A stretch of DNA of 64,000 nt from an uncultured Candidatus Saccharimonas sp. (GCA_943354005.1 CALRBE010000002.1:25810-89809), one strand, 5' to 3'; numbered from the stretch's first letter, positions 28,824 through 45,585 are shown. Notes: generated by a model not told the origin, from the sequence alone. A program made the numbers and translations.

Positions 28824-28826
28824 AAA

Positions 28827-28854: not shown

Positions 28855-28866
28855 TAAACGGCTATA

Positions 28867-29091: not shown

Positions 29092-29601
29092 ATGCAGAAC
29101 GAAGATCTAATGGAGAAGCCACTAACTAAAGAGGGTGCTAAAGCCTCTCAAGAACTATCATGGACGGCTTCTGAATTTATTGAACACAAAAAAAATGCCG
29201 GCTGGTATATAATACTTGGCCTCATTAGTGCAGGCCTAGCAGCTATAGCATTTATTTTTGCTGACATTTTTACTACTGTAGTCGTACTATTGTCTGCAGC
29301 CCTTTTTGGATATATAGCTTCAAAGAAACCTCGCGAACTGCCTTATTTAATTAGCAGTGAGGGAGTCAAGGTAGATAAGAAGCTCTATCGTTATAGTAAC
29401 TTTAAGTCTTTTTCTATAATTCAGGAAGAGGGCATACAAAGCGTATGGTTCATGCCAATGCAACGCTTTGCACCAGGCCTTAGTATCTATTTCTCTCCTG
29501 AAGAAGGTCAGAAGATCGTCAATCTACTTGGTACATTCATTCCTTACGAGGAAAGAAAATTAGATCCGATAGACCATCTTATGCACCGCCTAAGATTCTA
29601 G
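29092..29601 (+). CDS. hypothetical two-TM membrane protein
   Basis: ORF trimmed to the first ATG (MQNEDLMEKPL). Two adjacent hydrophobic helices. Confidence 0.45.
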   Translation: MQNEDLMEKPLTKEGAKASQELSWTASEFIEHKKNAGWYIILGLISAGLAAIAFIFADIFTTVVVLLSAALFGYIASKKPRELPYLISSEGVKVDKKLYRYSNFKSFSIIQEEGIQSVWFMPMQRFAPGLSIYFSPEEGQKIVNLLGTFIPYEERKLDPIDHLMHRLRF

Positions 29602-30598: not shown

Positions 30599-30620
30599 GA
30601 TAATTCCAAAATCATATAGA

Positions 30621-30645
30621 AAAGCCCCTATGTAAGGGGCTTTTC
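30621..30645 (+). terminator. rho-independent terminator after hsp20
   Basis: GCCCCT-atgta-AGGGGC stem followed by TTTT. Confidence 0.7.
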
Positions 30646-30684
30646 TAATTCTATATCCCATATCCCAAGAAAGATCATGGTTAT

Positions 30685-30708
30685 AATAAAAGCCCCCCGA
30701 AGGGGGCT
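30685..30708 (-). terminator. rho-independent terminator of the pilin operon
   Basis: Minus strand reads GCCCCC-TTCG-GGGGGC followed by TTTTATTAT, 9 nt after the stop of 30717..31130. Confidence 0.75.
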
Positions 30709-30716
30709 TGGCGACA

Positions 30717-31130
30717 TTAGACTGTGTCGCTACCAATGAATCGATTGAGAACAAATCTTACGATAACCTGCGATAGTGCGACTACAACAAGTCCTACTAA
30801 AGCGTAAAGGATTGTGTTCTTTGCAGATGTTACATTTGCAGATTCACCCTGTGATGTAATATATTTTACACCTCCAAGGATAATCATGACGACAGCAATA
30901 ATACCAACAACTGCAGAGAATATATTTAGGGCAAGTGTAATAGTACTATTAACTTTGGTCTCGGCTTCAGGATTAACACAGTTACCCCCCTCTGTGAGAG
31001 TTAGATTAGTACCGCCACATAGACTCTGATCTATGGTAGCAGCGTATACGCCAGCAGGAACAGCGAGAGGGACGATTAGTGCCGCTGCTGCCATTATACT
31101 TATTAGTGTTGTTTTTATTTTCTTGATCAT
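30717..31130 (-). CDS. T4SS pilin-like protein (VirB2/TrbC topology), paralog 1
   Basis: Signal peptide (..VPAGVYA), a Cys pair (LCGGTNLTLTEGGNC), then the conserved two-TM hairpin NIFSAVVGIIAVVMIILGGVKYITSQGE..AKNTILYALVGLVVVAL. Confidence 0.7.
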   Translation of the reverse strand: MIKKIKTTLISIMAAAALIVPLAVPAGVYAATIDQSLCGGTNLTLTEGGNCVNPEAETKVNSTITLALNIFSAVVGIIAVVMIILGGVKYITSQGESANVTSAKNTILYALVGLVVVALSQVIVRFVLNRFIGSDTV

Positions 31131-31204
31131 TATGAACCTTTCGTTAATCTTACCTATTTTTATACCATAACTATTTTAGTAATTACAAGTGGTTTTACTA
31201 CATA

Positions 31205-31600
31205 TCAAACAAACCTATCTAGAACAAATCTTACAATAACTTGAGCAAGAGCGACAACAACAAGGCCAATGGCAGCATAAAGTATCGTATTTTTAGCAGA
31301 AGCAGTTGCAGTTGCATCACCCTGTGAAGTAATATATTTCAATCCTCCAACCATAATCATTACTACCGCTATTATCCCTATTATGGCGCTAAATAAATTT
31401 AGCCCTTTCTTAATTAAAGAGTCTGGAGTAGGGGATCCAGGCGCTGCAGTACAACCTGAGTCTCCTGAACCTGCGGCTAGTCCGGCGCCGGAGCAGGCTG
31501 CTTCTTTGGGAGTAAGGGCGCCTACTGTTAGTGGAGCAACGATTATTGAACCTAAAATTAAAATCGTTAAAATTCTTAATGTAATAAATATTTGTTTCAT
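31205..31600 (-). CDS. T4SS pilin-like protein, paralog 2
   Basis: Same architecture. Cys pair ACSGAGLAAGSGDSGC; hairpin NLFSAIIGIIAVVMIMVGGLKYITSQGD..AKNTILYAAIGLVVVAL. Confidence 0.7.
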   Translation of the reverse strand: MKQIFITLRILTILILGSIIVAPLTVGALTPKEAACSGAGLAAGSGDSGCTAAPGSPTPDSLIKKGLNLFSAIIGIIAVVMIMVGGLKYITSQGDATATASAKNTILYAAIGLVVVALAQVIVRFVLDRFV

Positions 31601-31995
31601 GATACCAACCTTAATATAAATTCTACTATAACTCTTGCTAAAGCAATCACAACAATACCTACTGCAGCATAAATGATAGTATTCTTAGCATCACTAAGTT
31701 TCTTACTATCTCCAGAAGAGGTTATCATTTTTAGTCCTCCAAGCATAATCATTACTACCGCTATAATTCCACCGACTGCAGCAATTAGGTTAGCTGCTTT
31801 AGTTAATATCCCATTAGGGCCATATATTGGGCTTGGGTCAGAATTGTTTTTACTCTGGCAGACTGCAGAATCTTTAACCTCAGGATCACTACAGGTTGTC
31901 GCATAGGGATCTAACGCTGCACTTGCATAAACTGGAACCACAAATAGGCCCGCCATCAAAAGCAAAGAAAGTAAGAATAATTTTTTATTCTTCAT
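31597..31995 (-). CDS. T4SS pilin-like protein, paralog 3
   Basis: Same architecture. Cys pair TCSDPEVKDSAVC. ATGA stop/start overlap with paralog 2. Confidence 0.7.
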   Translation of the reverse strand: MKNKKLFLLSLLLMAGLFVVPVYASAALDPYATTCSDPEVKDSAVCQSKNNSDPSPIYGPNGILTKAANLIAAVGGIIAVVMIMLGGLKMITSSGDSKKLSDAKNTIIYAAVGIVVIALARVIVEFILRLVS

Positions 31996-32291
31996 AGTCT
32001 TCCTACCACAAAGGTTACTATCGTAAATGCACCCAAGCTGACCGCTAGACCTACTGCAGCATAAATGATAGTATTCTTAGCTTTCGTAAGACTATCAGGG
32101 TTACCCTGTGATGTCATAAACTTAATGCCCGCAATAATGATTATAATGACAGCGATGGCCCCCATAGTTCCAAATACTATCTGCAAGATATTATTAACGT
32201 TATCACTAGTAACATCGTTTACTGGAACATCGATTTCTTCAAGATCTTTTTTTGTTACTATAGCTGCGACTAATAGGAATAAGCTATTCAT
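31992..32291 (-). CDS. T4SS pilin-like protein, paralog 4 (short, no Cys pair)
   Basis: 99 aa. It keeps the hairpin (GAIAVIIIIIAGIKFMTSQGN..AKNTIIYAAVGLAV) but has a shortened N-terminus. ATGA overlap with paralog 3. Confidence 0.65.
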   Translation of the reverse strand: MNSLFLLVAAIVTKKDLEEIDVPVNDVTSDNVNNILQIVFGTMGAIAVIIIIIAGIKFMTSQGNPDSLTKAKNTIIYAAVGLAVSLGAFTIVTFVVGRL

Positions 32292-32737
32292 TACAATGAT
32301 GCTCCTACGAAACTGACTATTGTAACTGCAAGAATTGCAATTACAAGGCCAACCAATGCATTAATAATAGTTTTTTGGGCCATTTTATAAGCTTCAGGCT
32401 CACCTTGACTTGTAAGGTATCTAAAACCTCCATATATAATGAAGGCGACAGCAACCATGCCAGAAATACGCAGTAATATTTCAATTATAGCTAGGCCAAT
32501 TCTTGGGGCAGCCTTTGCGACATCAATACCCTTATCATCTCCAATAGGACCAATAATGGCACAAGGGTCTTCTCCTTTTGCGCCTACGTCAAGATATTTA
32601 TACCAGGTAGGAAATCCGAGAAAAGAAGAGCTTGTATCACATTTAGCATCAACTGCGGCAGAAACCGGCAATGCATAGAAAACACCGCAGAACATAGATA
32701 TAAAAATGCTTATTAAGAATACTCTTGTTAATTTCAT
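32291..32737 (-). CDS. T4SS pilin-like protein, paralog 5
   Basis: Start trimmed to MKLTRVFLIS (ATGA overlap with paralog 6). Cys pair KCDTSS...EDPC; hairpin GMVAVAFIIYGGFRYLTSQGE..AQKTIINALVGLVIAIL. Confidence 0.65.
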   Translation of the reverse strand: MKLTRVFLISIFISMFCGVFYALPVSAAVDAKCDTSSSFLGFPTWYKYLDVGAKGEDPCAIIGPIGDDKGIDVAKAAPRIGLAIIEILLRISGMVAVAFIIYGGFRYLTSQGEPEAYKMAQKTIINALVGLVIAILAVTIVSFVGASL

Positions 32738-33165
32738 AGTACTCCTCCGGGAACAATCCATTGTAGAAAACCAAACATAAAGGCAAAAACAACAAGAGCT
32801 AAAATAGCATTAGATATACGCTTCTTTGAAGCTTCAACAGCCTGAGGATTACCGGCAGAAGCGGAATACTGAATACCAGCGACAATGATAGATATTGTTA
32901 TAACTACACCCAGAATGGCAGATAATACATTAATAAAAATAATTATGTACTTAGTGATGCCACAATCATCTTTGCCTATACCGTTCTTGCAGTTTATGCT
33001 AGATTCATCTCCTGGAAGCGCTACTTTCCCATTGGATGTCTCTACAGGTGTTTCTTTACCTCCCGCGTAGCCTTTTACTGGAAAAAAAGACCAAACAGAA
33101 AGCAACATAAAGACTGTAGATATTAGCGCTAAGGTAATGATGCTTTTTCTTTGTGTAACGATCAT
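32734..33165 (-). CDS. T4SS pilin-like protein, paralog 6 (most divergent)
   Basis: Signal/TM helix, Cys pair NCKNGIGKDDC, hairpin NVLSAILGVVITISIIVAGIQYSASAGN..SKKRISNAILALVVFAF. Confidence 0.6.
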   Translation of the reverse strand: MIVTQRKSIITLALISTVFMLLSVWSFFPVKGYAGGKETPVETSNGKVALPGDESSINCKNGIGKDDCGITKYIIIFINVLSAILGVVITISIIVAGIQYSASAGNPQAVEASKKRISNAILALVVFAFMFGFLQWIVPGGVL

Positions 33166-33286
33166 AGTTTGGATATTTTATTACTTGTTTATTATAGTAG
33201 TTAATTATAGACGGATGAGACATATATGTACAACAAGTTCCATAGTATTAATAGTTATAAAGAGTGTATTATAGTGGTATTAATAG

Positions 33287-33315
33287 TTGTATAGCTGATG
33301 CATTAGCACTATAAT
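33287..33315 (+). promoter_or_regulatory. putative sigma-70 promoter of the T4SS-like structural operon
   Basis: TTGTAT, a 17-nt spacer, then TATAAT. It lies ~40 nt upstream of the ATG at 33354, in the divergent AT-rich intergenic region. Confidence 0.4.
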
Positions 33316-33353
33316 TACTATATAGAATAAGGTTGGGATCCCAAATCATAAAT

Positions 33354-36254
33354 ATGTTTAAATATTTGAACAAAATTTCATCAATAACTCTAGCATTTGT
33401 TTTTATGCTTAGTTTTGTTGGAGCTTCTTTATTGTCACCGCAAAAAGCTAGTGCAGCAATTAGTAACGGAGAATTACAGGCCAAAGCGCAAAAAATACAG
33501 AAGCTAGAGTTATTCAAAAAATGTGTAGACGCAGTGCTAACAGTATCTTTCGCTAAAACAACATCACCCTTTGAAAGTGGAAGATTCAAAGTTGGACACC
33601 TAGTTGATTCTGATGATGGTAAGTGGGACTGTGGAGGCGATGGTACTAGAGAAGATCAACTATTTAAGCTACTTCTAGTTAATGGTGATGATAATAAAAC
33701 CTACACTGGATTCTACGGTGGTAATAACGCTTATACTCTTCCGGAAAGAGGAAATGTAAAAAATGTCGTTGGAGACGATAAGCCGTTTCTTAAATTTATT
33801 AACGAGGCTAATAAGAGTAATTACGACTTAAATAGTAAAGATGATGGCCTATCACTAGATGCTGCAAAAAAGAAAATAAGAGGTCAAATTAATAGAACGC
33901 TTGATTCCATAAAGGCTGATGGAAAAGAGCTTAATGCTCTTCGTTATGAAAACATGGCGGCTTCATTTTTTGGTAAAGGAGCATGTGGCGCAAGAGAGAT
34001 TAAAAATATTAATAATGCGTCAAAAGATGTTGTTAAAGTCGGCAGTACCTCGTATGAAGTAAACGACGACACCGGTCTAGTAGCTGTAGGCTACGGCCGC
34101 CTTGGAACAGAAGATGGGGACTTTAGTTGTGAGAATATAGCAAAGTCGCTAGGCAATCTTCAAGCGGATTATAACTCTGTCTCGGGCACGAAAGGGCAGA
34201 TACCTCCCGGTGCAGTTGATGGTGACTCCGGGTCATCAACTGCTGGAGAAGACGAGAGTTGTGAAGCAAAAAGTGGTGTAACAGCCTGGTTCGCATGTCC
34301 ATTTGTAGCATTAATAGGTGAGGCACTAAATTGGATCGATGAACAGATAAATAGGTACATGGTACTAACGCCCGATTTATATAAAGATAATGATGACCTT
34401 TATGAGGCCTGGACATCATTTCGTAATATTGCCTTGTCTTTATTAATAGCGGCCATGATGGTGATAGTTATTAGCACCGCTTTAGGCCTAAGTTTCTTGG
34501 ATGCATATACTGTAAAAAAGGCTTTTCCTAGACTTGTAGTTTCAATCATATTCATTTTGCTTTCTTGGTGGGTCTGCGTATTTTTAATCGATCTAGTAAA
34601 TGTTATTGGTCAAGGAATATTAGGCCTAATGACCTCGCCATTCCCAGCATCGGATAGTCTAGGAAAAATGTTTACCACAGAAAATGCAGGCGCCAATGTT
34701 GCAGGCGCCGCTGGATCATGGGCTGTTTTGGGTATTGGTATTTATTTTCTCGGAAATGTACCTGGCACGTTAGGAATTATCGGAAGTTGGATTGGCGCAG
34801 CAGTACTAGTGCTGCTAGCTGCTTACGTTACTTTGATTGCGCGTCAAATGTTTATAATTGTTCTTATTATTTTCTCCCCTTTGGCGATTCTTGCATGGAT
34901 TTTTCCAGCAACTTCAAAAGCATGGAGGTTCTGGTGGGAGGGATTCATTAAGGCATTGTTAATGTACCCAATGGTGATGGCATTAATTGGTGCAGGCCGT
35001 ATCTTTTCATCAGTTGCCGGTCAATCTAAGGAAGGCTTGTTGGCTGCAATTCTAACACTTACTGCCTACGTCATACCATATGCATTTATTCCTTTCACCT
35101 TTAAGGCTGCTGGGGGCTTGTTTGGTAACTTTGCTGGAATGGTGAATAACCGTTCTAAGGGTGGCTTTGATAGGTTGCGTAAAGTTCGTCAAAAGAATAC
35201 AGCCGAAATGGGTCAACGTGCCAAGACTGGCCAATTAACTAAGGGTTCCGGTCGTTTCAATAATAGAGTAAACCGAGCTGTACGTGGTGCAGCTGCTGGG
35301 CCTTCAGGTGGCTTCGGCTTAACAAGCACTGCCCGGGGTCGTATTTTCGATGATGAGCAGGCAGCCGTAGATGCAGTGGAAATGAAAAAGACTGCCGCCT
35401 GGCAAGGAGCGCAGTTTAAAAATAATACTATGCGAGCTTTAACTCATACTAACGAAAGGGATGCTCGCGCGGAGCTTGTTAGTAGAGGCGTCAGTGAAGC
35501 GGCAATAGAAGAGGCTTTAGTAGGTGCTAAAAAGATAGGCTACGGTCGTACAAGCCAAATAGCGGCTTCCCAGCAACTTGCAGTTAATAAGGACGGTTTC
35601 ACCAATGCTGTAGATGCATCGAAATTAGTAGATCGAGTAGCGGGCAGTAACGGGACTCTTCGTTCAAGCCTCAGGGAAAATGTTAAATACACTAGTAAAC
35701 AAGTTGGAAGGAATGATCTGGGTGCATTGCAAGATCGTCAAGCTGGCGAAACGGAACAGCAATGGAATGATAGGATGACAAACGCTGGGTTTGAAAATAT
35801 AGACCCTTATTCATTGGGACGCGAACATGCAAAAAGTTATGAAAATCTTGCAGCTTCAAACGCTAATGAGTTTGAAGATGCCGTTAGATCATGGTCATCT
35901 CCTGGAGGTAGGACTACAATGAATAAAGATCGGGTAATTGCTGCCCGAACCCGAATAGAAGAAACTATGAAAAATGCGCCGTCTGCTACTGGAACTAATG
36001 CCAGAGAAGCCGTTAGGTTATCAGACAGAATTGCCGGAGCGGATGAACGAATAAGACAAATAGATGAAACGCAGGTTCAAGTTGGTACAGACCCGAATAC
36101 TGGTGCACCGATCTTCAGAGGTTACTCTGAAATACTTGGATGGAGAGCAGACTTACCGGTACAAGGGGTCGTACAAGGTCAAGTTGGTACTGGAGGACTA
36201 GCAAGAACAACTAACCCCAGGGATGAAGAAAGAATGAGAAACCAGGGTCCGTAA
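33354..36254 (+). CDS. VirB6/TcpH-like polytopic T4SS channel protein with large N-terminal ectodomain and C-terminal soluble domain
   Basis: Start trimmed to MFKYLNKISSITLAFVFMLSFVGASLLSPQKASA (signal peptide). A ~330-aa ectodomain, then ~7 TM helices (residues ~350-600), then a ~370-aa hydrophilic C-terminus. The call rests on position and topology, not a motif. Confidence 0.55.
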   Translation: MFKYLNKISSITLAFVFMLSFVGASLLSPQKASAAISNGELQAKAQKIQKLELFKKCVDAVLTVSFAKTTSPFESGRFKVGHLVDSDDGKWDCGGDGTREDQLFKLLLVNGDDNKTYTGFYGGNNAYTLPERGNVKNVVGDDKPFLKFINEANKSNYDLNSKDDGLSLDAAKKKIRGQINRTLDSIKADGKELNALRYENMAASFFGKGACGAREIKNINNASKDVVKVGSTSYEVNDDTGLVAVGYGRLGTEDGDFSCENIAKSLGNLQADYNSVSGTKGQIPPGAVDGDSGSSTAGEDESCEAKSGVTAWFACPFVALIGEALNWIDEQINRYMVLTPDLYKDNDDLYEAWTSFRNIALSLLIAAMMVIVISTALGLSFLDAYTVKKAFPRLVVSIIFILLSWWVCVFLIDLVNVIGQGILGLMTSPFPASDSLGKMFTTENAGANVAGAAGSWAVLGIGIYFLGNVPGTLGIIGSWIGAAVLVLLAAYVTLIARQMFIIVLIIFSPLAILAWIFPATSKAWRFWWEGFIKALLMYPMVMALIGAGRIFSSVAGQSKEGLLAAILTLTAYVIPYAFIPFTFKAAGGLFGNFAGMVNNRSKGGFDRLRKVRQKNTAEMGQRAKTGQLTKGSGRFNNRVNRAVRGAAAGPSGGFGLTSTARGRIFDDEQAAVDAVEMKKTAAWQGAQFKNNTMRALTHTNERDARAELVSRGVSEAAIEEALVGAKKIGYGRTSQIAASQQLAVNKDGFTNAVDASKLVDRVAGSNGTLRSSLRENVKYTSKQVGRNDLGALQDRQAGETEQQWNDRMTNAGFENIDPYSLGREHAKSYENLAASNANEFEDAVRSWSSPGGRTTMNKDRVIAARTRIEETMKNAPSATGTNAREAVRLSDRIAGADERIRQIDETQVQVGTDPNTGAPIFRGYSEILGWRADLPVQGVVQGQVGTGGLARTTNPRDEERMRNQGP

Positions 36255-36270
36255 AGAGAGCATCAGTATA

Positions 36271-37257
36271 ATGGCAACTTACAAAGTATTACAAGACATA
36301 GAAGCAGAGGATAAGTTTTTAGGACCCTTAACCCTAAAGCAGTTCATCTTTGGTGCCATCACTTTAGTGAGTGGATACTTAAGTTTTCTGTTTATAACAA
36401 AGGGGTTGCCGCTTCTAGCGATACCACTATTTCCACTGATTATTGTGACAGGTTTTCTAGCCTTCCCTTGGGGAAGAGACCAGCCAACGGAAACATGGCT
36501 CCTAGCTAAACTGCGATTTTACTTTAAGCCTCGTAAAAGAATATGGGATCAGACGGGAATTCAAGAACTCGTTAAAATTACTGTTCCTAAAGTGGTCAAT
36601 CAATATACTAGCGATAACCTATCGCAAGATGAGGTAAGGCAAAGACTTAGAGCTTTAGCAGAGACTGTAGATACTAGAGGCTGGGCCACTAAGAATATTG
36701 TCAGTAATCCTGCCTACGCCGTAGCTGGAGGAGCTGCCAGTGATAGACTGATGAATCCTACAATGCTTCCTTCAGTAATATCGGCTGTAGATATCCCGGA
36801 TAGCGAGGATATATTTGATAATCCGCAAGCCGCTCAGATAGCTGCAAAGATAGAAGAGAACAGCCAAAAACATAAGAATGAAATAATTGAGCAGATGCAT
36901 AAACCAGATGATTCTCGACCAAGTTGGTTTATGCAGAATAATCCTAGTAATGATGGAAATCTTCCAGCTGCTTTTAGAAATAAAGAAAGTAGTCTCGATC
37001 CAAATGAAAAAGCTTTTCTTGATGAAATTCATGAGAATAAAAGTCAATTTGGTCAATCATTCAGAAACCACAAATCATTGTCACCTATTAGTGATGTCCC
37101 AGTGCAAAAAAGTCCAGTTTCACAAGTGACAGTAGCCCCTGACCCTGTTACAATTGAACTTGCAAGGAACAATGACAGAACCGTTGAAAGTCTTGCGCGT
37201 GAGACCAATCAAGCTCACGAACAACTCGACGAAGAAGTAATTGTTTCTCTTCATTAG
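36271..37257 (+). CDS. PrgI-family (VirB3-like) T4SS membrane protein with extended C-terminus
   Basis: N-terminus MATYKVLQDIEAEDKFLGPLTLKQFIFGAITLVSGYL, followed by a second TM helix. This matches the PrgI family pattern, and the gene lies upstream of virB4. Confidence 0.6.
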   Translation: MATYKVLQDIEAEDKFLGPLTLKQFIFGAITLVSGYLSFLFITKGLPLLAIPLFPLIIVTGFLAFPWGRDQPTETWLLAKLRFYFKPRKRIWDQTGIQELVKITVPKVVNQYTSDNLSQDEVRQRLRALAETVDTRGWATKNIVSNPAYAVAGGAASDRLMNPTMLPSVISAVDIPDSEDIFDNPQAAQIAAKIEENSQKHKNEIIEQMHKPDDSRPSWFMQNNPSNDGNLPAAFRNKESSLDPNEKAFLDEIHENKSQFGQSFRNHKSLSPISDVPVQKSPVSQVTVAPDPVTIELARNNDRTVESLARETNQAHEQLDEEVIVSLH

Positions 37258-37287
37258 TACTAGAGCGGGTGGGTAGTAAACAAATAT

Positions 37288-38241
37288 ATGAATCCTTCTT
37301 ATAATCAGCCTCAAATGGGTCAAGCGAATACAACTGGCGTCCCATCTAATCCTTATGGGCCACCTCCGACGAGTGGGGTAGCTTCTCAGTCTATTGCTAT
37401 GCCTGGGTCAGTGCCAGTAACAAATGTTCCTGGAAATACCTATGAGCCTCAGATGAGATCAGGTTCACAGCAGCCAGGCGTAATACAAACTCCTGTTGCT
37501 GCACCCAAATCAAATCCTAATAGCACTCAAAATGCTTTGCAGATGGCAGAGATACGTGACGGTATTGTTATTATGAATGATGGCAGCTTCCGTTCGGTTA
37601 TCATGGTTAAATCTATTAATTTTGATCTTATGAGTCCTGAGGAAAGGGAAGCAGTTGAATTTAGTTATCAGGGCTTTTTAAACTCTTTGTATTTTCCTAT
37701 TCAAATTACGATTCGTTCTCAAAAGGTTGATCTCGGTCCCTACATTCAAAAGCTCGATAAGATACGCTCAGAGCATGACAATATGCTCTTAGCGGTACTT
37801 ATGGATGACTACATTAATTATATGGACACCTTAAGCCAGCAAGTAAATATCATGGACAAGAAGTTTTATTTAGTAATTCCTTATTACCCGGTAGTAGATG
37901 TACAAAAGGCGTTGTCCTCAAGTAAGGGTCTCGTTAAAGGTGTTTCAGCATTGTTCAGTAGGAAGCCTCAAAACCAGGTACTAATTAATGAAGCCGATCT
38001 ATTGAAGGCAAAGGATGAACTACGCAACAGGGTACAGGCGGTATTAGGGGGGCTTATGCAGTGCGGTGTTCAAGGACTGCCACTTGATACCCAGGAATTA
38101 ATTGAACTTTACTATGACAGCTACAACCCCGACACTGCAACCCGCCAACCACTCAAGAATTTCGAAGATCTTTCAGTGCCTGTGGTATCTAAAGGAGTTG
38201 GTGAGGCACCACAGCCTGGCCTAGATAGGGAGATGCTGTAA
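37288..38241 (+). CDS. hypothetical T4SS-associated protein (P/Q-rich N-terminus + globular domain)
   Basis: 317 aa, with a TAATG overlap onto virB4. The globular part (EIRDGIVIMNDGSFRSVIMVKSINFDLMSPEEREAVEFSYQGFLNSLYFPIQI) resembles N-terminal regions of Gram-positive VirB4-type proteins. Confidence 0.5.
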   Translation: MNPSYNQPQMGQANTTGVPSNPYGPPPTSGVASQSIAMPGSVPVTNVPGNTYEPQMRSGSQQPGVIQTPVAAPKSNPNSTQNALQMAEIRDGIVIMNDGSFRSVIMVKSINFDLMSPEEREAVEFSYQGFLNSLYFPIQITIRSQKVDLGPYIQKLDKIRSEHDNMLLAVLMDDYINYMDTLSQQVNIMDKKFYLVIPYYPVVDVQKALSSSKGLVKGVSALFSRKPQNQVLINEADLLKAKDELRNRVQAVLGGLMQCGVQGLPLDTQELIELYYDSYNPDTATRQPLKNFEDLSVPVVSKGVGEAPQPGLDREML

Positions 38242-40154: not shown

Positions 40155-40156
40155 TA

Positions 40157-43100
40157 ATGGCGACAGATCTAGAAGAACGAAATGCTGGAATATACGATGA
40201 CGATAATCCCGCTTGGAAAACGTCCGTAGATAAAACAGGTGAAACTGGCGACGAAGGATCTTCTAGTGATGCCCTGGCATCAAAAGATATTCAAGCTAAG
40301 GAAAAATCAGGAGCTAAATCCTCTTCAACTAAAGCAGACAAATCCGAAGGAGGCTCACTGTACAAAGCAGGAAAGCCAAAAAAACTTTCCATTGCATCAA
40401 CTTTTTCCAGAAAAAGGGCAGCTATTGGTTTCGGTATTGCTTCTTCATTAATTACTGTATTTGTAGTAATTTTCTTACAAATTCCAAACTTACTCGTCAA
40501 TCAGCTTAAAGAAATGCTCATTGGCCGGATTGGTAATGTGCAAATGTACCAGCAAAGAAGCTATCGGCAAAAAAAAGTCCCTAAGATGAAAAATTTCTTT
40601 AGTCGAGAAGGAAGAATGGGCGAAAAGATGTTAGCAGAGATGAAAATTGATGGATATGAAGCGATCTTTAGTCCAGACGGTAAATCAATAATTGGATTAA
40701 AAAGTAGCAGTACTGCTGATGGTTTAATTGGAGATGGTATAGGTGACAATACAGAGGGTTGGATCAACGAAAGGCATCCATTTAGATCCGCGCGATGGAG
40801 AACTAAAAGGATGAATGCTTTTAAAAAGGTCTTCGGTGTTACGAGTACTTCAGTTATAGATGCAGAAAAAGCAAAGAGTGGTCCAGATAAGGATCTTTCG
40901 GCAAAACAACAAGTCAATAAAGGCGTTGGTACAGATGTGCTTGATCCTGATAAAGGTGGGGCTATAGATGATGATCTTAAAGTTACCGGTAATGATGCCG
41001 ATCCAGCAAGTACTCCTGAAGCTGATGCTGAAGCTGAACGCAGAGTTACAGGGGCTTTAGAAACTGATAATGCAATTGGCGACGAGATAGAAGCGAGCCG
41101 TGACGCCATTTTAAAAGATGGGGCAGACGTCAAGCCAAACGGGATTGTTGAAGGAATCGCAAGCGGCGGCTTAGATGAACCGCTTAAAAATGCCCTGGAT
41201 GATGTGAATGCCCCATCAGTAGGCAGCACACTTAAGGGGGCTAAGGGGGTTTTAAGTCCTTTGGATTTTGTTGATAAAATTTGTACGATTAGAAAACGTA
41301 CACAGGGCGCCCTACAATTAGCTAGAGCAGCGAGATCTATTAAACTCATTAGATATACAATGGTTTTTATTAATGCGGCTGACGACACTCGTAGAGGCAA
41401 TGCGAATCCAAAACTTCTTAGTGAACTAATGAAACGTGTTACATCAGAAGACAAAAATGGCAACGCAATCGGAGGATCTCCCGGTTTTGCATATATGATG
41501 AAGGGTAAGTTTAGTAAGAGCAGGAATAAAAACGTAAAACAATCAGTAGCGGTAGACGGTAAGCTGACAGGAATTGTTGGAGGAATTAGCGAGCAAACTG
41601 ATAAACTTCCGGGCCTTGGTGTTGGTTGTCCAATAGCGCAAAACCCACTTGTCCAAGTTGCAGCGGGAGTTGGGTCTATTGTTGCAGGATTAAGTTCGGG
41701 AGGTTTGAGTGCTGCAGCACAGAAAGCAGCACTCGAAGCAGTTGAATTTGGTGTAAAGCAAGCCGTCAAAAAAACTGTAATATCGATTATTAAGAGTAAA
41801 GCTACACAGGGAGCAGCTCTTTCCATTGCTGGAGGATTTACTTTTGAGGCTTTCATGGGATATCTTGACGCTTATGTCCAGCAACAGCTTACCTTACCAT
41901 TCACTGGACAAGAAAAAGGGGGGCAACTTGGCGATATTCTTGTAGCTGGAGCGGGAGCCTCAAACAAACAGCGTTCGCTATCTGCTGGAATGGTTCCTGC
42001 AACGTCAGAACAGTATGCAGCTGCAGAATCAGAGTACATTGCATGGAGAGATGAACAGTTTAAGAATCTAAGTTTTAAAGAAAGAATTTTTAATTCCGAA
42101 CATCCTAATAATCTAGCGTTCAACCTTGCACTAGCCTCCCCGACGAGTGCTACCGATTTTGCTAATAAGACAAAAGACGCCTCAGTTTCTTTAGCATCTT
42201 CAGTCTTGAACCCTGGAAAATACATTAGCTTATTAGGTAATATCTTTAGTGGAAAAGTGTCTGCTGAAGATGAAGACTATGTACCGTATGAAACTTATAC
42301 TTTAAATGGGGGAAATGGGGATAGAACAGAATTAGCGACTGATCCCGCAGGTAATCTTCAGGTTATCATGAGGTCAGATATTGAAGCTATCGACCCTGAA
42401 CCAAACATGGATTCTCTTGTTGCCGAAGAACAGGTAAATCCCGAAACAGCCTTGCCAATTGATGGAACTCCTTTTGACCGACATATAAAGAACTGTGTTG
42501 ATAACCCTGACATACTTAGTCAAATTGAAGAAGATGATGAGTTCGATTGTCTTGCAAAAAAACCTGAAACTAAAAGATTTAAGGCTCACTTAGCTTATCT
42601 AGATACAAGAGATGCATATGAGGCTGAGTTTTTTCCTGAAGACATAGATACTCCCACTGCAGCAGACTCGGCAGCGGTAGGATCAGGTAACAATAAAGTA
42701 TACACAGTTGGTGATTCCCTAACAGTAGGTATGCGAGATGCTGGAGGACTGAGGGATAAATATACTGCTGCAGGCTGGGATTCAACCGACATTGAAGCAA
42801 CTGTTGGAGAAAGAACTGAGCAGGCAATAGTTAAAGTTACTGCAGATAGCGCAATAGTAGCTCAGGCAGGAACGGTAGTTGTAATGCTTGGCACGAACCA
42901 ATCTACTGGTTATGCAGATAAAATAAAGCAGATGGTCGACACTATACGAGGGATAAATCCAACGGCTAATATAGTCTGGATGAATTCTCGTACGGATAAA
43001 CAAGACTATGCAGCGGACAATGCTAGCCTACTGCTTCAATCATTGGCATTAAAATTCAAGGTTATTGATTGGAGTTCTGAATATGCGAAAAACAAAGCCA

Positions 43101-43720
43101 AATATCCTGGTGCTGGCGATGGAATACATTTAAACGGAGCTGGCTATGCAGCAAAGTCTACTTTTCTTATTTCACAGTTAGGGCCACCTCCGACTGCGGG
43201 TACTGCTGGTGTTTCAGCAGGACTAACTTGGCCGCTTCAACAAACAAAAGCACAGGTCCAAAGCTCTCTTGGTTCATGTCTACAGATAGCTCAAAAATCA
43301 ATATGTGATGCTGGTCATAAGTATAAAGCACATGATCTATTTGCAGCTCAAGGTACACCAGTTTTTGCAGCCGCTTCTGGAACGGTATTAAAGGCAAGTG
43401 TCGGTGGTTGTGGCCACGGTTTCGGTAAAGCATTCACTGTTACGGTATACGATTCTGTGAATGATACTACGTATTTCTATCAGCATATGGATCCCGGTGC
43501 AGGAGGCGTAGCTAACGGTGCGGTATTAAAACCAGGAGATAAGATTGGAGTAGTAGGATCAACCACGGCTGCCTGCAATACACCACCGCACCTACATTTT
43601 GATGCCATCAAAGGCAAGGGTAGGGCCTCATGCAGTAGAGAAGGCTGTTCGGCCGAAGTAAAAGCAAGATTTATTGATATTTCAAAAGGACTATACCAGG
43701 GCTATGAAGTACTACCATAA
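40157..43720 (+). CDS. membrane-anchored multi-domain cell-wall hydrolase (SGNH/GDSL esterase + M23 metallopeptidase)
   Basis: 1187 aa. TM helix AAIGFGIASSLITVFVVIFLQI. SGNH block I VYTVGDSLTVG and block V GDGIHLNGAGY. M23 motifs HKYKAHD (HxxxD) and PPHLHFD (HxH) at the C-terminus. Confidence 0.75.
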   Translation: MATDLEERNAGIYDDDNPAWKTSVDKTGETGDEGSSSDALASKDIQAKEKSGAKSSSTKADKSEGGSLYKAGKPKKLSIASTFSRKRAAIGFGIASSLITVFVVIFLQIPNLLVNQLKEMLIGRIGNVQMYQQRSYRQKKVPKMKNFFSREGRMGEKMLAEMKIDGYEAIFSPDGKSIIGLKSSSTADGLIGDGIGDNTEGWINERHPFRSARWRTKRMNAFKKVFGVTSTSVIDAEKAKSGPDKDLSAKQQVNKGVGTDVLDPDKGGAIDDDLKVTGNDADPASTPEADAEAERRVTGALETDNAIGDEIEASRDAILKDGADVKPNGIVEGIASGGLDEPLKNALDDVNAPSVGSTLKGAKGVLSPLDFVDKICTIRKRTQGALQLARAARSIKLIRYTMVFINAADDTRRGNANPKLLSELMKRVTSEDKNGNAIGGSPGFAYMMKGKFSKSRNKNVKQSVAVDGKLTGIVGGISEQTDKLPGLGVGCPIAQNPLVQVAAGVGSIVAGLSSGGLSAAAQKAALEAVEFGVKQAVKKTVISIIKSKATQGAALSIAGGFTFEAFMGYLDAYVQQQLTLPFTGQEKGGQLGDILVAGAGASNKQRSLSAGMVPATSEQYAAAESEYIAWRDEQFKNLSFKERIFNSEHPNNLAFNLALASPTSATDFANKTKDASVSLASSVLNPGKYISLLGNIFSGKVSAEDEDYVPYETYTLNGGNGDRTELATDPAGNLQVIMRSDIEAIDPEPNMDSLVAEEQVNPETALPIDGTPFDRHIKNCVDNPDILSQIEEDDEFDCLAKKPETKRFKAHLAYLDTRDAYEAEFFPEDIDTPTAADSAAVGSGNNKVYTVGDSLTVGMRDAGGLRDKYTAAGWDSTDIEATVGERTEQAIVKVTADSAIVAQAGTVVVMLGTNQSTGYADKIKQMVDTIRGINPTANIVWMNSRTDKQDYAADNASLLLQSLALKFKVIDWSSEYAKNKAKYPGAGDGIHLNGAGYAAKSTFLISQLGPPPTAGTAGVSAGLTWPLQQTKAQVQSSLGSCLQIAQKSICDAGHKYKAHDLFAAQGTPVFAAASGTVLKASVGGCGHGFGKAFTVTVYDSVNDTTYFYQHMDPGAGGVANGAVLKPGDKIGVVGSTTAACNTPPHLHFDAIKGKGRASCSREGCSAEVKARFIDISKGLYQGYEVLP

Positions 43721-45014
43721 ATATTTATTGAATACTCTCAAGACACTTAAGATACTAATGTTTATTAGTGTTTTCAGTATTTCAGCATTAGTACCAAGAG
43801 TTGCATTCGCGCTAACTGAAAGGCAATGTGATCAAAGTTATTTGAGAAATATTGGAGCGGTTAACCTTAGTTGCGCGATAGAAGAAAAATGTTCTGTGCC
43901 TGATAGCGCAGTATCGATAAATCTAAGTGGTAACGACAATCCTGAAAAAATATGGAACTTTTTAATTCAGAAGGGACTTTCACCTCAAAATGCAGCAGGT
44001 TTCTTGGGTAATATTCAAGCTGAGTCTGGATTTAATCCAAAATTGGTAGAGTATGCATATTCTAAGAAACCTCACTTATCGGATACATTACCTCCTGCGC
44101 AAAACAGTAAAGGACAGCCGGGATATGGCCTAATACAATGGACATTCCCTACACGAAGAGATAAGTTACAAGAAAAGGTAGATAATGACCCCCAAAAAAG
44201 AATAGCTGGTGATCTTTCACTCCAGCTTGAATTAATATGGGAAGAGCTGAATGGAGGATTTAAAAAAAGTACATTAGATCCTCTTAAGAATGCCAAGACT
44301 GCTACAGAATCTAGTATTATCATCACCAAAAACTATGAGATCCCGGGCGATCCAGCTAAAGAAATACCCAAGAGGGCTGCTGCTGCTGAGGAGTTTCTTA
44401 AAAAATACTCTTCACTAGGTCAAGGTGTGCCTATACCTGGAGGGGCCGCTGTTACTCCAAGTGCATCAGCTGAATGCGATGCAGGTATTTCGGGCCCGGG
44501 TGCTAATACTAAGTTCATAGATGGTTTTACGGTTTATAGTCAGTATGATCCAGCCTGGAAAGACTTGCCATATTCTTCAAGTACGATTGGTAAGTCAGGC
44601 TGTGGTCCTGCGGCCATGGCAATGATTATAACTAATTTAACAGGTAAAAGCGTAGGTGTAGTAGAAACCGCAAACTTTGCTGCTAGTAATGGACAATACA
44701 TACCAGGCGCAGGAAGCGCCTGGACTATAGCGCCAGTCTTAGCTCAAAAATATGGTCTAAAAGCAACACAAATAGGAAAAGATCTTGCAAGAATAACTCA
44801 AACTCTACAAGCTGGAGGTCTAGTCATTGCTTCAGGTAAAGGTCCTGTGCCTTTTACTACGGGTGGCCACTTTATCGTGATAAGGGCAGTTACACCATCA
44901 GGTAAATTCCTGGTGGGTGATTCAGCACATGAAGCTGCCAACACACAGGAATGGGATCCTCAACAATTATTAAGCGCAATGCCAGGAGGCAGTACTTATG
45001 CAGTTACTAAGTAA
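43704..45014 (+). CDS. secreted two-domain cell-wall hydrolase (lysozyme-like + C39/papain-like cysteine peptidase domain)
   Basis: Start trimmed to MKYYHKYLL... (signal peptide ending AFA). FLGNIQAESGFNP and GYGLIQWT (phage-tail-lysozyme-like). C-terminal SGCGPAAMAMI and GGHFIVIRAV (Cys/His pair). Confidence 0.65.
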   Translation: MKYYHKYLLNTLKTLKILMFISVFSISALVPRVAFALTERQCDQSYLRNIGAVNLSCAIEEKCSVPDSAVSINLSGNDNPEKIWNFLIQKGLSPQNAAGFLGNIQAESGFNPKLVEYAYSKKPHLSDTLPPAQNSKGQPGYGLIQWTFPTRRDKLQEKVDNDPQKRIAGDLSLQLELIWEELNGGFKKSTLDPLKNAKTATESSIIITKNYEIPGDPAKEIPKRAAAAEEFLKKYSSLGQGVPIPGGAAVTPSASAECDAGISGPGANTKFIDGFTVYSQYDPAWKDLPYSSSTIGKSGCGPAAMAMIITNLTGKSVGVVETANFAASNGQYIPGAGSAWTIAPVLAQKYGLKATQIGKDLARITQTLQAGGLVIASGKGPVPFTTGGHFIVIRAVTPSGKFLVGDSAHEAANTQEWDPQQLLSAMPGGSTYAVTK

Positions 45015-45585
45015 TTTTCAAGAGAATGTTAATCTATCCAGGAATAAAAAAATAGGGCTATCTATAGGGGCTTTTATAGTTATTGCGATGATTGTATTAT
45101 TCGTGTCTTTCCTAGGTAAAGATCCGCAAAACAAAACGGAAGTATACTATGATCCTGCATCAAAAGAAACTATAGATGAGAAAGAAGATAAGACTCCTGA
45201 AACACTTTTAGATAACGCGTCTACAGAGCCAGTATTTTTAGGTTTTGGTAAAATTATTGAATACGGAATTTCTCAGGATCAGCTTACAAATTTAAAAACT
45301 GCCTTCAATACTTATTTAGGTAAAGGAAACAATGGTAAAAGGGAAGTAAGTATATATGTTGACTCTATATCTTCATATAAAGTAAATGATGTGCCTGATT
45401 CAGATTTTGGTTTATCATTTGATGTAATTATTGATAGAAAAACAAAATTATCAGCGATTATGTATCAATTGAAAGTTTCAGATATTCAATTAAAACTTTA
45501 TAAAGAGGGCTCAGATAAGGCAATTTTCGATTCAGGTATAGTAACTAATTCTCCTAATGTTAATACTGAGGACTTAGTAGATTAG
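44998..45585 (+). CDS. hypothetical bitopic membrane protein, last gene of the T4SS-like operon
   Basis: 195 aa. N-terminal TM helix (IGLSIGAFIVIAMIVLFVSFL) plus a ~150-aa ectodomain. Only its size and topology resemble VirB8. Confidence 0.45.
   Translation: MQLLSNFQENVNLSRNKKIGLSIGAFIVIAMIVLFVSFLGKDPQNKTEVYYDPASKETIDEKEDKTPETLLDNASTEPVFLGFGKIIEYGISQDQLTNLKTAFNTYLGKGNNGKREVSIYVDSISSYKVNDVPDSDFGLSFDVIIDRKTKLSAIMYQLKVSDIQLKLYKEGSDKAIFDSGIVTNSPNVNTEDLVD

Follow-up and report, generated by a model that had tools for sequence, protein, structure and literature searches.

The window, that is, the whole 64-kb stretch of DNA that was analysed, carries a T4SS locus at 30717-45585 in which six pilin genes on the minus strand (30717-33165) diverge from a seven-gene operon on the plus strand (33333-45585). 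The operon's products are a polytopic VirB6-like protein, PrgI/VirB3, a protein of 317 aa and VirB4, followed by a pair of hydrolases of the cell wall and one small anchored protein (Table 1). The locus is flanked by hsp20 and tRNA genes on one side and by recF-dnaN-dnaA on the other. A first-pass annotation had described six VirB2/TrbC-like genes divergent from seven plus-strand genes, and all 13 ORFs were confirmed at the coordinates that it gave; what it observed held in all details, including families and absences within 64 kb. The plus-strand genes are tightly packed, with gaps of 16, 30 and 2 nt and overlaps of 1 and 17 nt, in agreement with the overlaps of 1-17 nt and gaps under 35 nt first described. 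One nuance concerns the 446-aa hydrolase gene: its longest ORF, from a TTG at 43674, overlaps the preceding gene by 47 nt, and the 17-nt overlap is conditional on the ATG at 43704, which is likely to be the true start. In the divergent control region, promoter-like sites at 33232-33204 (minus, 10/12 matches) and 33248-33275 (plus) are consensus matches only, and an 18-nt direct repeat is present at 33245-33262 and 33277-33294. A second hairpin, which is bidirectional, lies at 30617-30647, between hsp20 and the pilin operon.

Table 1. Features of the T4SS locus, in window coordinates.
Feature	Coordinates	Strand	Evidence or remark
Terminator-like hairpin	30690..30709	-	8-bp GC-rich stem and T run; immediately past last pilin gene
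Pilin 1, 137 aa, VirB2-like T4SS pilin	30717..31130	-	PF18895 E 9e-12; NF045849 Mbov_0395-type pilin-like E 4e-8
Pilin 2, 131 aa	31205..31600	-	PF18895 E 1.4e-14; NF045849 E 1.3e-8
Pilin 3, 132 aa	31597..31995	-	PF18895 E 1.2e-13; NF045849 E 3e-6
Pilin 4, 99 aa, without signal peptide or Cys	31992..32291	-	PF18895 E 7e-11
Pilin 5, 156 aa	32291..32761	-	PF18895 E 1e-11; positional orthologue in 28/28 six-pilin loci
Pilin 6, 143 aa, most divergent paralogue	32734..33165	-	PF18895 E 1e-6, 29.2 bits; positional orthologue in 28/28 six-pilin loci
Divergent control region, pilin versus machinery operon	33166..33332	.	Consensus matches only
Polytopic VirB6-like protein, 973 aa	33333..36254	+	Topology and conservation profile
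PrgI/VirB3-like protein, 328 aa, long C-terminal tail	36271..37257	+	PF12666 E 7.7e-12, above cut-off
TrsD-like protein, 317 aa, detached VirB4 N-terminal module	37288..38241	+	NCBIfam TrsD E 1.4e-5
VirB4 ATPase, 637 aa	38241..40154	+	PF19044, PF12846, DUF87
N-terminally anchored SGNH/GDSL and M23 protein, 1187 aa	40157..43720	+	PF13472 aa 851-999; PF01551 aa 1057-1152
Anchored hydrolase, lysozyme-like and C39-like Cys peptidase, 446 aa	43674..45014	+	PF18013 E 1.6e-31; PF13529 E 1.4e-14
Bitopic protein, 195 aa, narrow clade only	44998..45585	+	One TM helix at 16-44

With scores of 29.2-54.3 bits, the six minus-strand proteins are all above the T4SS_pilin gathering cut-off of Pfam (26.6), and a profile built from 304 Saccharimonadia pilins has exactly six matches in the window. 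Each protein has two C-terminal hydrophobic helices, as the VirB2/TrbC topology first assigned to them implies. An N-terminal signal-like helix and a Cys pair are found in five of the six (in pilin 1, Cys38/Cys51 together with two TM helices). Pilin 4, which has neither, nevertheless passes the TrbC/VirB2 profile PF04956 (30.4 bits, cut-off 27.9) and scores 42.2 bits with NF045849 (cut-off 40), while pilin 3 falls slightly below the PF04956 cut-off at 26.9 bits. Additionally, pilin 2 matches a Pontibacillus plasmid pilin-like protein in blastp (E 6e-12). Judged from sequence comparison, the six are conserved positional orthologues and not recent duplicates. Relative to one close relative, synonymous sites are saturated in pilins 3-6 and in the VirB6-like gene, which suggests allele exchange.

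The 973-aa protein has an N-terminal hydrophobic segment followed by about six TM segments within aa 360-590, and the Pfam scan found no family for it. It consists of a hypervariable ectodomain (~aa 40-300), a conserved TM core (~aa 350-625) and a variable hydrophilic C-terminal domain; C310, C322 and further TM-core residues are invariant across 46 orthologues. Four of these 46 match PF04610 (TrbL/VirB6; best E 8.5e-4), for which the window copy gives E 0.5. In a Foldseek search of the PDB with a model of pLDDT 62, the top matches were R388 TrwI/VirB6 chains (prob 0.99, E 0.06, TM 0.34-0.45). Together, these matches weakly suggest a VirB6-like protein.

The VirB4 and PrgI/VirB3 assignments both held above their cut-offs in profile searches. 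PrgI has two TM helices, at 24-68, and is present in 72 of 80 related loci; VirB4 is 79-98% identical across the 80 best Saccharimonadia loci. The Walker A (AKSGAGKS, aa 265) and Walker B (ILIIDEAW, aa 487) motifs noted earlier in VirB4 agree with its Pfam families, with NCBIfam CD1110 (357 bits, cut-off 325, aligned over profile positions 185-734) and with PDB 4AG5 (E 6e-47). No other Walker A motif occurs in the locus, of which VirB4 is the sole NTPase. Strong purifying selection is indicated by dN/dS values of 0.02-0.07 for VirB4 (0.019), the TrsD-like protein and PrgI. The system had been called Gram-positive-type (MPF-FATA-like), and this is supported by the CD1110 match and by the plasmid relatives of VirB4, all of which are monoderm or archaeal.

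The 317-aa protein between them had been described as a P/Q-rich unknown. It does have a variable P/Q/S/G-rich head (aa 1-75), ahead of a highly conserved body (aa 76-317), and the Pfam scan gave no family; however, the protein matches NCBIfam TrsD as well as the N-terminal portions of three NCBIfam VirB4 profiles. Its homologues adjoin VirB4 on 129 plasmids, nearly all from Bacillota, and the 898-aa protein P0250 is a fusion of a TrsD-like module (37% identity) with VirB4 (49% identity). In the window, the stop codon of the TrsD-like gene and the start codon of virB4 overlap by 1 nt (TAATG). The present analysis replaces 'unknown' with an identity: a VirB4 N-terminal module of TrsD type, detached from the motor.

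The domains first proposed for both hydrolases were recovered in the Pfam scan. The 1187-aa protein has a TM helix at 86-117, and its N-terminal 848 aa have no relatives in the PDB. In relatives and on Firmicutes plasmids, the same slot holds an M23, M15, NlpC/P60 or C39 hydrolase, and the 1187-aa protein is the occupant of this large VirB1-type wall hydrolase slot. In the 446-aa protein, Phage_lysozyme2 spans 89-245 and Peptidase_C39_2 spans 285-418. The 195-aa protein is bitopic, as first read, and a search of 5.8 billion proteins gave only 5 homologues of it; by tblastn it is found in 6/80 loci, its position being usually held by an anchored ORF of 140-520 aa. Its AF2 model (pLDDT 42) is unusable.

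The locus is the already described relaxase-less chromosomal T4SS of Saccharibacteria with six pilin genes, and the first-pass reading was therefore right but not new. Its collinear orthologue is SEML1_0004-0019 of Southlakia epibionticum ML1 (Cell; Wang et al. 2023, PMC10633639), which, from the hsp20 side, reads Hsp20, six PF18895 pilins, a large polytopic VirB6-like protein, PrgI, an unannotated protein of ~300 aa (TrsD-like), VirB4, a ~1100-aa protein with a terminal peptidase domain, a lysozyme and Cys-peptidase protein, small exported proteins and recF-dnaN-dnaA. Like the window, this cluster is without T4CP or relaxase; that study already remarked on the pilins and on the lack of coupling and relaxase proteins. 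By Tn-seq, all of its genes were scored essential, including each of the six pilins and SEML1_0006, the orthologue of the 446-aa hydrolase, with the exception of NTF2-like SEML1_0012. There are also differences. In ML1, two large polytopic proteins (0011, 0013) flank the non-essential TAT/NTF2-like 0012, whereas the window carries a single polytopic protein and lacks an NTF2-like ORF; the C-terminal end of the large hydrolase is an M15-type DD-peptidase in ML1 instead of SGNH plus M23; and nothing among the tail-end exported proteins (PEGA, prealbumin-like) could be matched to the 195-aa protein. Similarly, a phylum-wide survey (Quinonero-Coronel et al. 2025, Microb Genom, PMC12102498) reported MPF-FATA ancestry, TrsD, PrgI, VirB6, arrays of 2-11 VirB2 pilin genes, relaxase absence and dnaA proximity. 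The Patescibacteria-clade T4SS that it describes shares the MPF-FATA-related VirB4 clade, TrsD and PrgI adjoining virB4, downstream hydrolases, near-absent relaxases and nearby dnaA/dnaN/rnpA, and shows no essential difference from the window locus.

Plasmids of Bacillota and Actinomycetota share the gene order pilin, VirB6-like, PrgI, TrsD, VirB4 and hydrolase. Monoderm plasmids on which VirB4 is split (MPF-FATA, TrsC-TrsD-TrsE-TrsG type), for instance Pontibacillus NZ_CP062975, Geobacillus pGspE55-1, Paenibacillus pSC2 and Embleya NZ_CP108778, follow the window order: pilin-like ORFs (one or two, compared with six in the window), a large polytopic gene (before PrgI or after VirB4), PrgI, TrsD-like, a VirB4 27-37% identical to that of the window, and finally a hydrolase of very large size (M23, NlpC/P60 or C39). 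In contrast to the chromosomal window locus, these clusters are plasmid-borne, and next to VirB4 both the Embleya plasmid and the classical plasmid of Brevibacillus have a T4CP of VirD4 type together with a relaxase or replication-relaxation protein. On the Embleya plasmid the two genes are directly 3' of VirB4, which shows what the window locus lacks. Since the core order is shared, and one such plasmid has a T4CP and replication-relaxation gene, the pilins look ancestral to this monoderm T4SS subclass. Co-option of pilins from diderm systems was left open by Quinonero-Coronel et al. (PMC12102498); the plasmid comparisons argue that the pilins would have come along with the monoderm module.

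Several functions are conceivable for such a machine. Like the window locus, Bordetella Ptl, Brucella VirB, Helicobacter ComB and archaeal Ced are without a VirD4 coupling protein. ComB and Ced are systems of import, not export. Unlike the window locus, the diderm T4CP-less T4SSs carry outer-membrane core components, and none of the four is known to be needed for growth, as the S. epibionticum cluster is. Ptl and the Brucella T4SS show operation without a T4CP (PMC12102498). One possibility is an effector translocator: proteins delivered into the host bacterium would reprogramme or damage it, and the pilus would be no more than the delivery needle. Wang et al. (2023, PMC10633639) suggest that the system 'may instead export proteins', effectors were assumed by McLean 2020 and in the TM7x transcriptome paper, and the hypervariability of the exposed components is what a host interface would lead one to expect. 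However, a T4CP, the usual substrate receptor, was not found in the window. It may lie elsewhere in the genome. T4CP homologues distant from virB4 are common in Patescibacteria, and that of S. epibionticum is not essential (PMC12102498). Furthermore, Pfam and NCBIfam searches of the locus revealed no recognisable toxin domain that would mark an effector candidate, the wall hydrolases being the only secreted enzymes, and this function is considered unlikely.

Comparably improbable is an import machine, in which macromolecules or nutrients of the host (RNA, nucleotides or lipids, for example) enter through the tube in the manner of T4CP-less DNA uptake by Helicobacter ComB or Sulfolobales Ced, but independently of ComEC. 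A T4CP-less, VirB4-only system would suit import, the organism is without nucleotide biosynthesis (Wang 2023), and uptake of host RNA and tubular connections have been observed in one cultured member of the Patescibacteria. Uptake via T4SS pili was proposed in a 2025 review, which restates the 'conduit for uptake' idea, and in a 2026 preprint. Yet there is no link between the observed tubes and these genes, and Pfam and NCBIfam found no nuclease or nucleic-acid-binding domain in the locus. VirB4 does match the DNA-import ATPase CedB (E 1e-14), but weakly, at 54 bits with a cut-off of 700, far below its conjugative VirB4 match.

On another reading (McLean 2020), the T4SS secretes the six small proteins as the subunits of a toxin or as an array of effectors, after the manner of Bordetella ptx/ptl; this is very unlikely. 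Five of them bear signal peptides and the array adjoins T4SS genes without a T4CP, as in Ptl, but all six combine a passing T4SS_pilin score with the VirB2 two-helix hairpin, they match the Mbov_0395 pilin-like family, single homologues precede PrgI in ordinary monoderm conjugation clusters, and similarity to pertussis S1 is only 11%.

The first-pass annotation read the locus as embedded in the core chromosome and not an obvious ICE, with a role that may differ from classical conjugation. Consistent with this, Pfam searches (E <= 0.001) covered the 63 other ORFs of the 64-kb window, 62 of which have 110 aa or more, and none matched a relaxase, T4CP/FtsK, VirB11 or integrase family. There is no att-like repeat within 64 kb; the sole repeat touching a tRNA 3' end reflects similarity between two tRNA-Ser genes. 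GC content is flat throughout, and position and gene order are fixed across the dozens of Saccharimonadia species compared. In the 80 related species loci, many of them truncated contigs, the neighbours include recF (66), dnaN (63), dnaA (55) and hsp20 (40). It is hardly credible that the locus is a decaying ICE remnant, or one piece of an ICE that has its relaxase, T4CP and integrase beyond the 64 kb searched: VirB4 belongs to a conjugative family and three tRNA genes, common ICE targets, lie within 2 kb, but flanks and gene order are identical in dozens of species, every ORF is intact, core genes are under the purifying selection noted above, the orthologous cluster is essential and relaxases have been found in only 103 Patescibacteria genomes (PMC12102498). 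The explanation preferred here combines a vertically inherited chromosomal T4SS of Saccharimonadia, orthologous to SEML1_0004-0019, with the pilus-building mechanism outlined next, and as a whole it is of moderate confidence.

In diderm systems, pilus biogenesis requires VirB4 and not VirD4. For the present system a pilus is, in every organism, a prediction from gene content; tubular connections, possibly T4SS pili, have been observed at a Patescibacteria-host interface. Deletion of comEC abolishes competence and spares viability, so the essential role of the orthologous cluster is not exerted via ComEC-dependent DNA uptake. A monoderm (MPF-FATA) conjugation machine already bearing VirB2-like pilins was probably the origin, of which only the pilus-building part would have been retained: six pilins, a VirB6-like platform, PrgI/VirB3, a VirB4 split into TrsD-like N-module and motor, and anchored peptidoglycan hydrolases. 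The DNA-processing half (T4CP and relaxase) would have been lost or never joined. A weak point of this model is that no VirB8-like component was found in the window. Sec would insert the pilins, and VirB4/TrsD, on PrgI and the VirB6-like protein, would pull them from the membrane and polymerise them, giving a tube or fibre that is probably heteromeric, although six individually essential pilins could have another meaning. The hydrolases would open a hole in the epibiont's own wall through which the fibre exits, and the host envelope would be met by variable pilin N-termini, the VirB6-like ectodomain and hydrolases. To the extent that gene content can indicate it, the locus would probably encode a machine with VirB4 as its only ATPase, making a pilus for contact with or penetration of the host, possibly a conduit, rather than for conjugation.

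The locus consists of two divergent operons, one of six small genes and one of seven, and all of these open reading frames (ORFs) were found as the first-pass annotation had claimed. Its reading of the six small proteins as VirB2/TrbC-type, which was made from topology, is borne out by profile searches: all six pass the Pfam gathering score of the PF18895 T4SS pilin family, one also passes the PF04956 TrbC/VirB2 cut-off, and 6/6 match the NCBIfam family NF045849 ('Mbov_0395 family pilin-like conjugal transfer protein'). Searched with a profile of 304 Saccharimonadia pilins, the 64 kb yield exactly six matches. The gene junctions are as tight as claimed; for instance, the 317-aa gene and virB4 share a 1-nt TAATG overlap. 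The pilin operon has a promoter-like site on one side and a terminator-like hairpin on the other; the 973-aa gene is preceded by a promoter-like site in divergent orientation. The promoter region between the operons also contains an 18-nt direct repeat, a possible operator or duplicated promoter element. At the far end, the 195-aa gene and recF are convergent and overlap, with no space for a terminator between them.

Features of the locus and of the sequence around it
Feature	Coordinates	Location and strand	Remarks
Exact 18-nt direct repeat	26459-26476 / 26492-26509	5' part of HTH-HAD gene	TTAGTCCAGCCTTCTGAC, 33 nt apart
570-aa and 177-aa ORFs	27111-29601		
570-aa ORF alone	27111-28823		
Pilin genes pil1-pil6	30717-33165	minus strand	
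18-nt direct repeat	33245-33262 / 33277-33294	between the two operons	GTATTAATAGTTATAAAG / GTATTAATAGTTGTATAG, 32 nt apart
Seven-gene operon	33333-45585	plus strand	
973-aa VirB6-like protein	33333-36254	operon, plus strand	
PrgI protein		operon, plus strand	PF12666 E 7.7e-12
317-aa TrsD-like protein		operon, plus strand	
VirB4		operon, plus strand	PF19044, PF12846, DUF87; PDB 4AG5 E 6e-47
1187-aa protein		operon, plus strand	GDSL and M23 domains
446-aa protein		operon, plus strand	Phage_lysozyme2 and Peptidase_C39_2 domains
195-aa protein		operon, plus strand	bitopic
Overlap of 195-aa gene and recF	45582-45585	plus / minus	4 nt
Six grouped DnaA-box-like sites	47.2-50.0 kb		
318-aa ORF	51783-52739	just past jag	

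One flank of the locus carries housekeeping genes (Mur ligase, TsaD, ValRS, an HTH-HAD protein, HIT, three tRNAs and Hsp20), and the opposite flank carries recF, dnaN, dnaA, rnpA, yidC and jag, followed by glycosyltransferases. Within the window, DnaA-box-like sites occur at a frequency expected by chance (21 versus 17.4 expected), even though six of them are grouped; the GC skew tracks gene strand and gives no position for the origin. Therefore, the description of the locus as origin-proximal rests mainly on its dnaA-dnaN-recF and rnpA-yidC-jag context. A family scan of 63 further ORFs in the window (62 of them 110 aa or longer) yielded no relaxase, coupling protein (T4CP)/FtsK, VirB11 or integrase at E <= 0.001, as had been claimed. 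Neither of two genes of conjugative MPF-FATA systems, a VirD4/TcpA-family T4CP and a MOB relaxase, has a family match among the ORFs scanned. The only repeat of the tRNA 3' ends is the mutual similarity of two tRNA-Ser genes; no att-like repeat was found, and GC content is flat across the window. Together with intact genes and a site that is fixed across species, these observations argue against an integrated conjugative element (ICE), in agreement with the earlier interpretation.

Two neighbouring ORFs of 570 and 177 aa were considered as further parts of the system and rejected, as they match no family and adjoin the cluster in 0 and 6 of 80 related loci, respectively. The 570-aa ORF encodes two hydrophobic segments and a Pro/Gly/Arg-rich C-terminus and is overlapped by a long antisense ORF; it has no Pfam or NCBIfam family and no T4SS-adjacent counterpart in the 80 loci. 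The 318-aa ORF has only a sub-threshold match to DUF6750 (E 2.6e-4) and no NCBIfam family. An exact direct repeat also lies within the HTH-HAD gene.

The locus is vertically inherited in a conserved position. VirB4 has an identical database entry and 8000 database matches, and in a one-genome-per-species collection at least 534 loci encode a relative. In the best 80 of these, almost all of which are titled Saccharibacteria, Saccharimonadales/Saccharimonadia or Patescibacteria MAGs, VirB4 is 79-98% identical to that of the window; the closest is from an uncultured Candidatus Saccharimonas sp. Comparison of synteny across these 80 loci, as the first-pass annotation had advised, gave a conserved order and site: hsp20, 5-7 pilins, a large polytopic protein, an optional ORF, PrgI, a protein of about 300 aa and VirB4, then an 800-1100-aa anchored protein, anchored hydrolases and recF-dnaN-dnaA. 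PrgI/VirB3 and the TrsD-like protein directly precede virB4 in 72-78 of the 80. The locus thus belongs with the Saccharimonadia-type T4SS in its VirB4 lineage, the placement of PrgI and TrsD-like genes, the pilin array and the chromosomal site beside recF-dnaN-dnaA, with neither relaxase nor T4CP in the cluster.

Both the family and its peculiarities are already known, and the window adds no new kind of system. Wang et al. 2023 (PMC10633639) described the orthologous cluster of Southlakia epibionticum ML1 as Gram-positive-like, noting its unusual pilins and that it lacks both coupling protein and relaxase; they suggested that it may export proteins or serve some other role. By Tn-seq in the same study, SEML1_0004-0011 and SEML1_0013-0019, including each of the six pilins, are essential, and the NTF2-like SEML1_0012 is non-essential; essentiality for epibiotic growth is known for S. 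epibionticum only. In a survey of the phylum (Quinonero-Coronel et al. 2025, PMC12102498), VirB4 formed an MPF-FATA-related clade, its gene had TrsD, PrgI and VirB6 nearby, and VirB2 genes stood in arrays of 2-11. Relaxases were very few, most T4CP homologues were encoded at a distance from virB4, and dnaA/dnaN/rnpA lay in its vicinity. In the light of these two studies, the interpretation in the first-pass annotation is right and not new.

The six pilins share 22-54% pairwise identity. Five of them have a signal-like N-terminal helix, a single Cys pair in the mature N-terminal part (e.g. C38/C51, C36/C50, C35/C46 and C59/C68) and two hydrophobic helices; pil4 consists of the two hydrophobic helices only, without signal peptide or Cys. 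Additionally, six Cys lie in the VirB6-like ectodomain, and two of these are invariant among 46 orthologues. These residues suggest that exposed loops of both proteins may be stabilised by disulfides. The six proteins were at one time taken as a pertussis-toxin-like secreted array (McLean et al. 2020). In the 28 loci with exactly six pilins, position predicts paralogue identity, without exception (28/28) for ranks 1, 5 and 6. Therefore, the six pilins are old, distinct genes, which, together with their individual essentiality in ML1, suggests non-redundant roles.

The VirB4 and PrgI assignments hold under profile search. VirB4 scores above the cut-off of the NCBIfam CD1110 family (NF045971; 356.9 bits versus 325), which places it, as judged by profile, in a monoderm conjugative (MPF-FATA) family. 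It fits poorly to DNA-import ATPases, with 54 bits to CedB and 24 bits to CedD versus cut-offs of 700 and 600. Its Walker A and Walker B motifs lie at residues 265 and 487, as described, and Walker A is confined to VirB4 among the locus proteins, which makes it the single ATPase. The 637-aa protein aligns to the CD1110 profile from position 185 onward only, and several lines of evidence suggest that the 317-aa protein supplies the remainder. Its P/Q-rich head varies, while conservation of the body (aa 76-317) among species is about 85% and exceeds that of PrgI; the protein matches NCBIfam TrsD (E 1.4e-5) and also three full-length VirB4 profiles, in each case over the N-terminal segment. An exhaustive search with it retrieved 2249 cluster representatives, and tblastn found homologues on 129 plasmids, almost all from Bacillota, where they are typically annotated as hypothetical and lie directly upstream of VirB4. 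One of the 2249 representatives, an 898-aa metagenomic protein (P0250), carries a TrsD-like module at 13-234 and a VirB4 at 312-889 that is 49% identical to that of the window, although this fusion could be an assembly or gene-calling artefact. A Pro-rich linker joins the two parts in its single chain. Direct profile-profile alignment of the two families by hhalign gave a probability of 0.4, both alignments being too shallow (Neff about 2), and the link is therefore made through NCBIfam and the fusion protein. On these similarities we conclude that the 317-aa protein is a TrsD-type module, the N-terminal part of VirB4 in detached form. TrsD homologues had been flagged earlier (Quinonero-Coronel et al. 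2025, PMC12102498).

The identity of the 973-aa protein as VirB6 is tentative. Its topology fits a VirB6-like protein, with one hydrophobic segment at the N-terminus and about six that span the membrane. Conservation is moderate in the TM core (about aa 350-625), which has invariant Cys, Pro and Trp residues, and the ectodomain (about aa 40-300) and C-terminal domain are hypervariable. PF04610 is matched by 4/46 orthologues (best E 8.5e-4; window copy E 0.5). Searching the PDB with a model of pLDDT 62, Foldseek ranked R388 TrwI/VirB6 chains highest (probability 0.99, E 0.06, TM 0.34-0.45); a PDB profile search with the family gave chance-level matches only, including influenza HA2 (E > 0.04). 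A word-indexed homologue search with the core returned four proteins only, and PF19590, their precomputed label, was not recovered at E <= 1. Peptidase_S74 occurs in 5/46 orthologues (best E 6e-8) and is absent from the window copy. In phage tail fibres and endosialidases this domain acts as an intramolecular chaperone, and its presence hints that some VirB6-like ectodomains may be fibre-like adhesins. The slot between the VirB6-like gene and PrgI holds one or more heterogeneous extra ORFs (100-700 aa) in 30 of 58 related loci, such as a very basic, repeat-containing 279-aa ORF in the closest relative (L001, 7131-7970), and is empty in 27 of the 58, as it is in the window. No homologue of these ORFs was found anywhere in the window, and there is thus no support for an NTF2-like domain fused into the 973-aa protein.

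No PDB entry is related in sequence to the first 848 aa of the 1187-aa protein. The 195-aa protein has five homologues only, and the AlphaFold model made with them (pLDDT 42; a TM helix, two helices and five strands, in that order) is unusable.

Divergence from L001 is uneven. The flanking housekeeping genes have dS of 0.19-0.30 and 98-100% amino-acid identity, and PrgI, TrsD-like and VirB4 have dS of 0.38-0.50 with dN/dS of 0.02-0.07. In pilins 3-6 and the VirB6-like protein (window 31600-36260 compared with L001 2060-7970), synonymous sites are saturated (pS 0.73-0.77) and amino-acid identity falls to 46-62%; nucleotide similarity is nearly gone across 33458-36262. Both hydrolases and the 195-aa protein are intermediate. 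VirB4 and VirB6-like divergence are uncoupled in all three of the closest genome pairs, which fits allele replacement by recombination. This pattern, seen in few pairs and in codon alignments of quite divergent proteins, suggests that exposed components may be replaced as alleles. As the exposed parts look exchangeable, they are candidate determinants of host range.

Plasmids of monoderm bacteria carry similar clusters. On a Pontibacillus megaplasmid, two pilin-like genes, a 779-aa polytopic protein and a 116-aa protein with a weak TraL/VirB3 match precede TrsD-like (32% identical), VirB4 (37% identical) and a 1050-aa M23 endopeptidase. Similarly, plasmids of Geobacillus, C. botulinum, Paenibacillus and B. 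thuringiensis encode a small ORF, PrgI, TrsD-like, VirB4 and an 850-1100-aa protein, then an M23, C39 or NlpC/P60 hydrolase. The actinobacterial Embleya plasmid has a pilin-like gene, VirB6-like, PrgI with a TrsD-like segment and VirB4, followed by a T4CP, a replication-relaxation protein and an NlpC/P60 hydrolase. As tblastn with the VirB6-like core and pilin 2 gave no match on plasmids, profiles were needed instead. The Saccharimonadia pilin profile matches a small cluster ORF in 6/7 plasmids (E 6e-26 to 9e-4), and the 973-aa family profile matches the Embleya polytopic protein (E 1e-4). In the Embleya cluster (NZ_CP108778, 4577-14441), the pilin-like ORF is unannotated (E 1.4e-13), and the 350-aa 'PrgI family' protein also matches the TrsD-like profile and looks like a PrgI-TrsD fusion. 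This cluster is a candidate piliated Gram-positive conjugation system. In contrast, on a small Brevibacillus plasmid of the classical kind, VirB4 is unsplit and accompanied by MobC, a relaxase, VirD4, PrgI and a hydrolase, and the pilin profile finds no match. By this comparison, the locus retains that half of a monoderm conjugation machine which spans the envelope and builds the pilus, and the DNA-processing half is absent from the 64 kb. Whether the pilins are of monoderm or diderm origin was left open by Quinonero-Coronel et al. 2025 (PMC12102498); the plasmid comparison indicates that they were most likely inherited with the monoderm module, and not grafted from diderm systems.

In diderm systems, pilus biogenesis requires VirB4 and not VirD4. 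By analogy, we infer that the gene set here would encode a machine that assembles a pilus in a monoderm envelope. VirB4/TrsD would dock on a platform of PrgI and the VirB6-like protein, pull out Sec-inserted pilins and polymerise them; the SGNH, M23, lysozyme and C39 enzymes would open the epibiont wall, and possibly the host wall too; and the variable surfaces would make host contact. The resulting structure might serve for attachment alone, for injecting proteins or for importing material of the host. A 2025 review called this the first T4SS essential for survival and speculated on a pilus conduit for uptake, and a 2026 preprint on another Patescibacteria reported feeding on host RNA, together with tubular connections 'that may be T4SS pili'; the filament evidence for any Patescibacteria T4SS is one tentative EM observation. 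A bolder joint reading, which we consider unlikely as a whole, would have the six pilins form a heteromeric hollow tube, assembled by VirB4 only, that pierces the host envelope and imports cytoplasmic material, e.g. RNA. A host-range cassette, exchanged between lineages by recombination, would comprise the N-termini of the pilins, the ectodomain of the VirB6-like protein and the hydrolases, and the ancestor would be a pilin-bearing member of an overlooked piliated subclass of Gram-positive conjugation systems.

The modest leads from this window are a probable monoderm origin of the pilins, the split VirB4, the six positional pilin orthologues and a possible mosaic exchange of exposed parts. 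The Patescibacteria T4SS is among the few machines known to be essential for epibiotic life, in a very large and mostly uncultured bacterial group. The question of what it moves, and which way, is sharpened in three ways: the gene set matches the pilus-building half of a monoderm conjugation machine, the pilins were most likely inherited with the machine, and the exposed parts look exchangeable.
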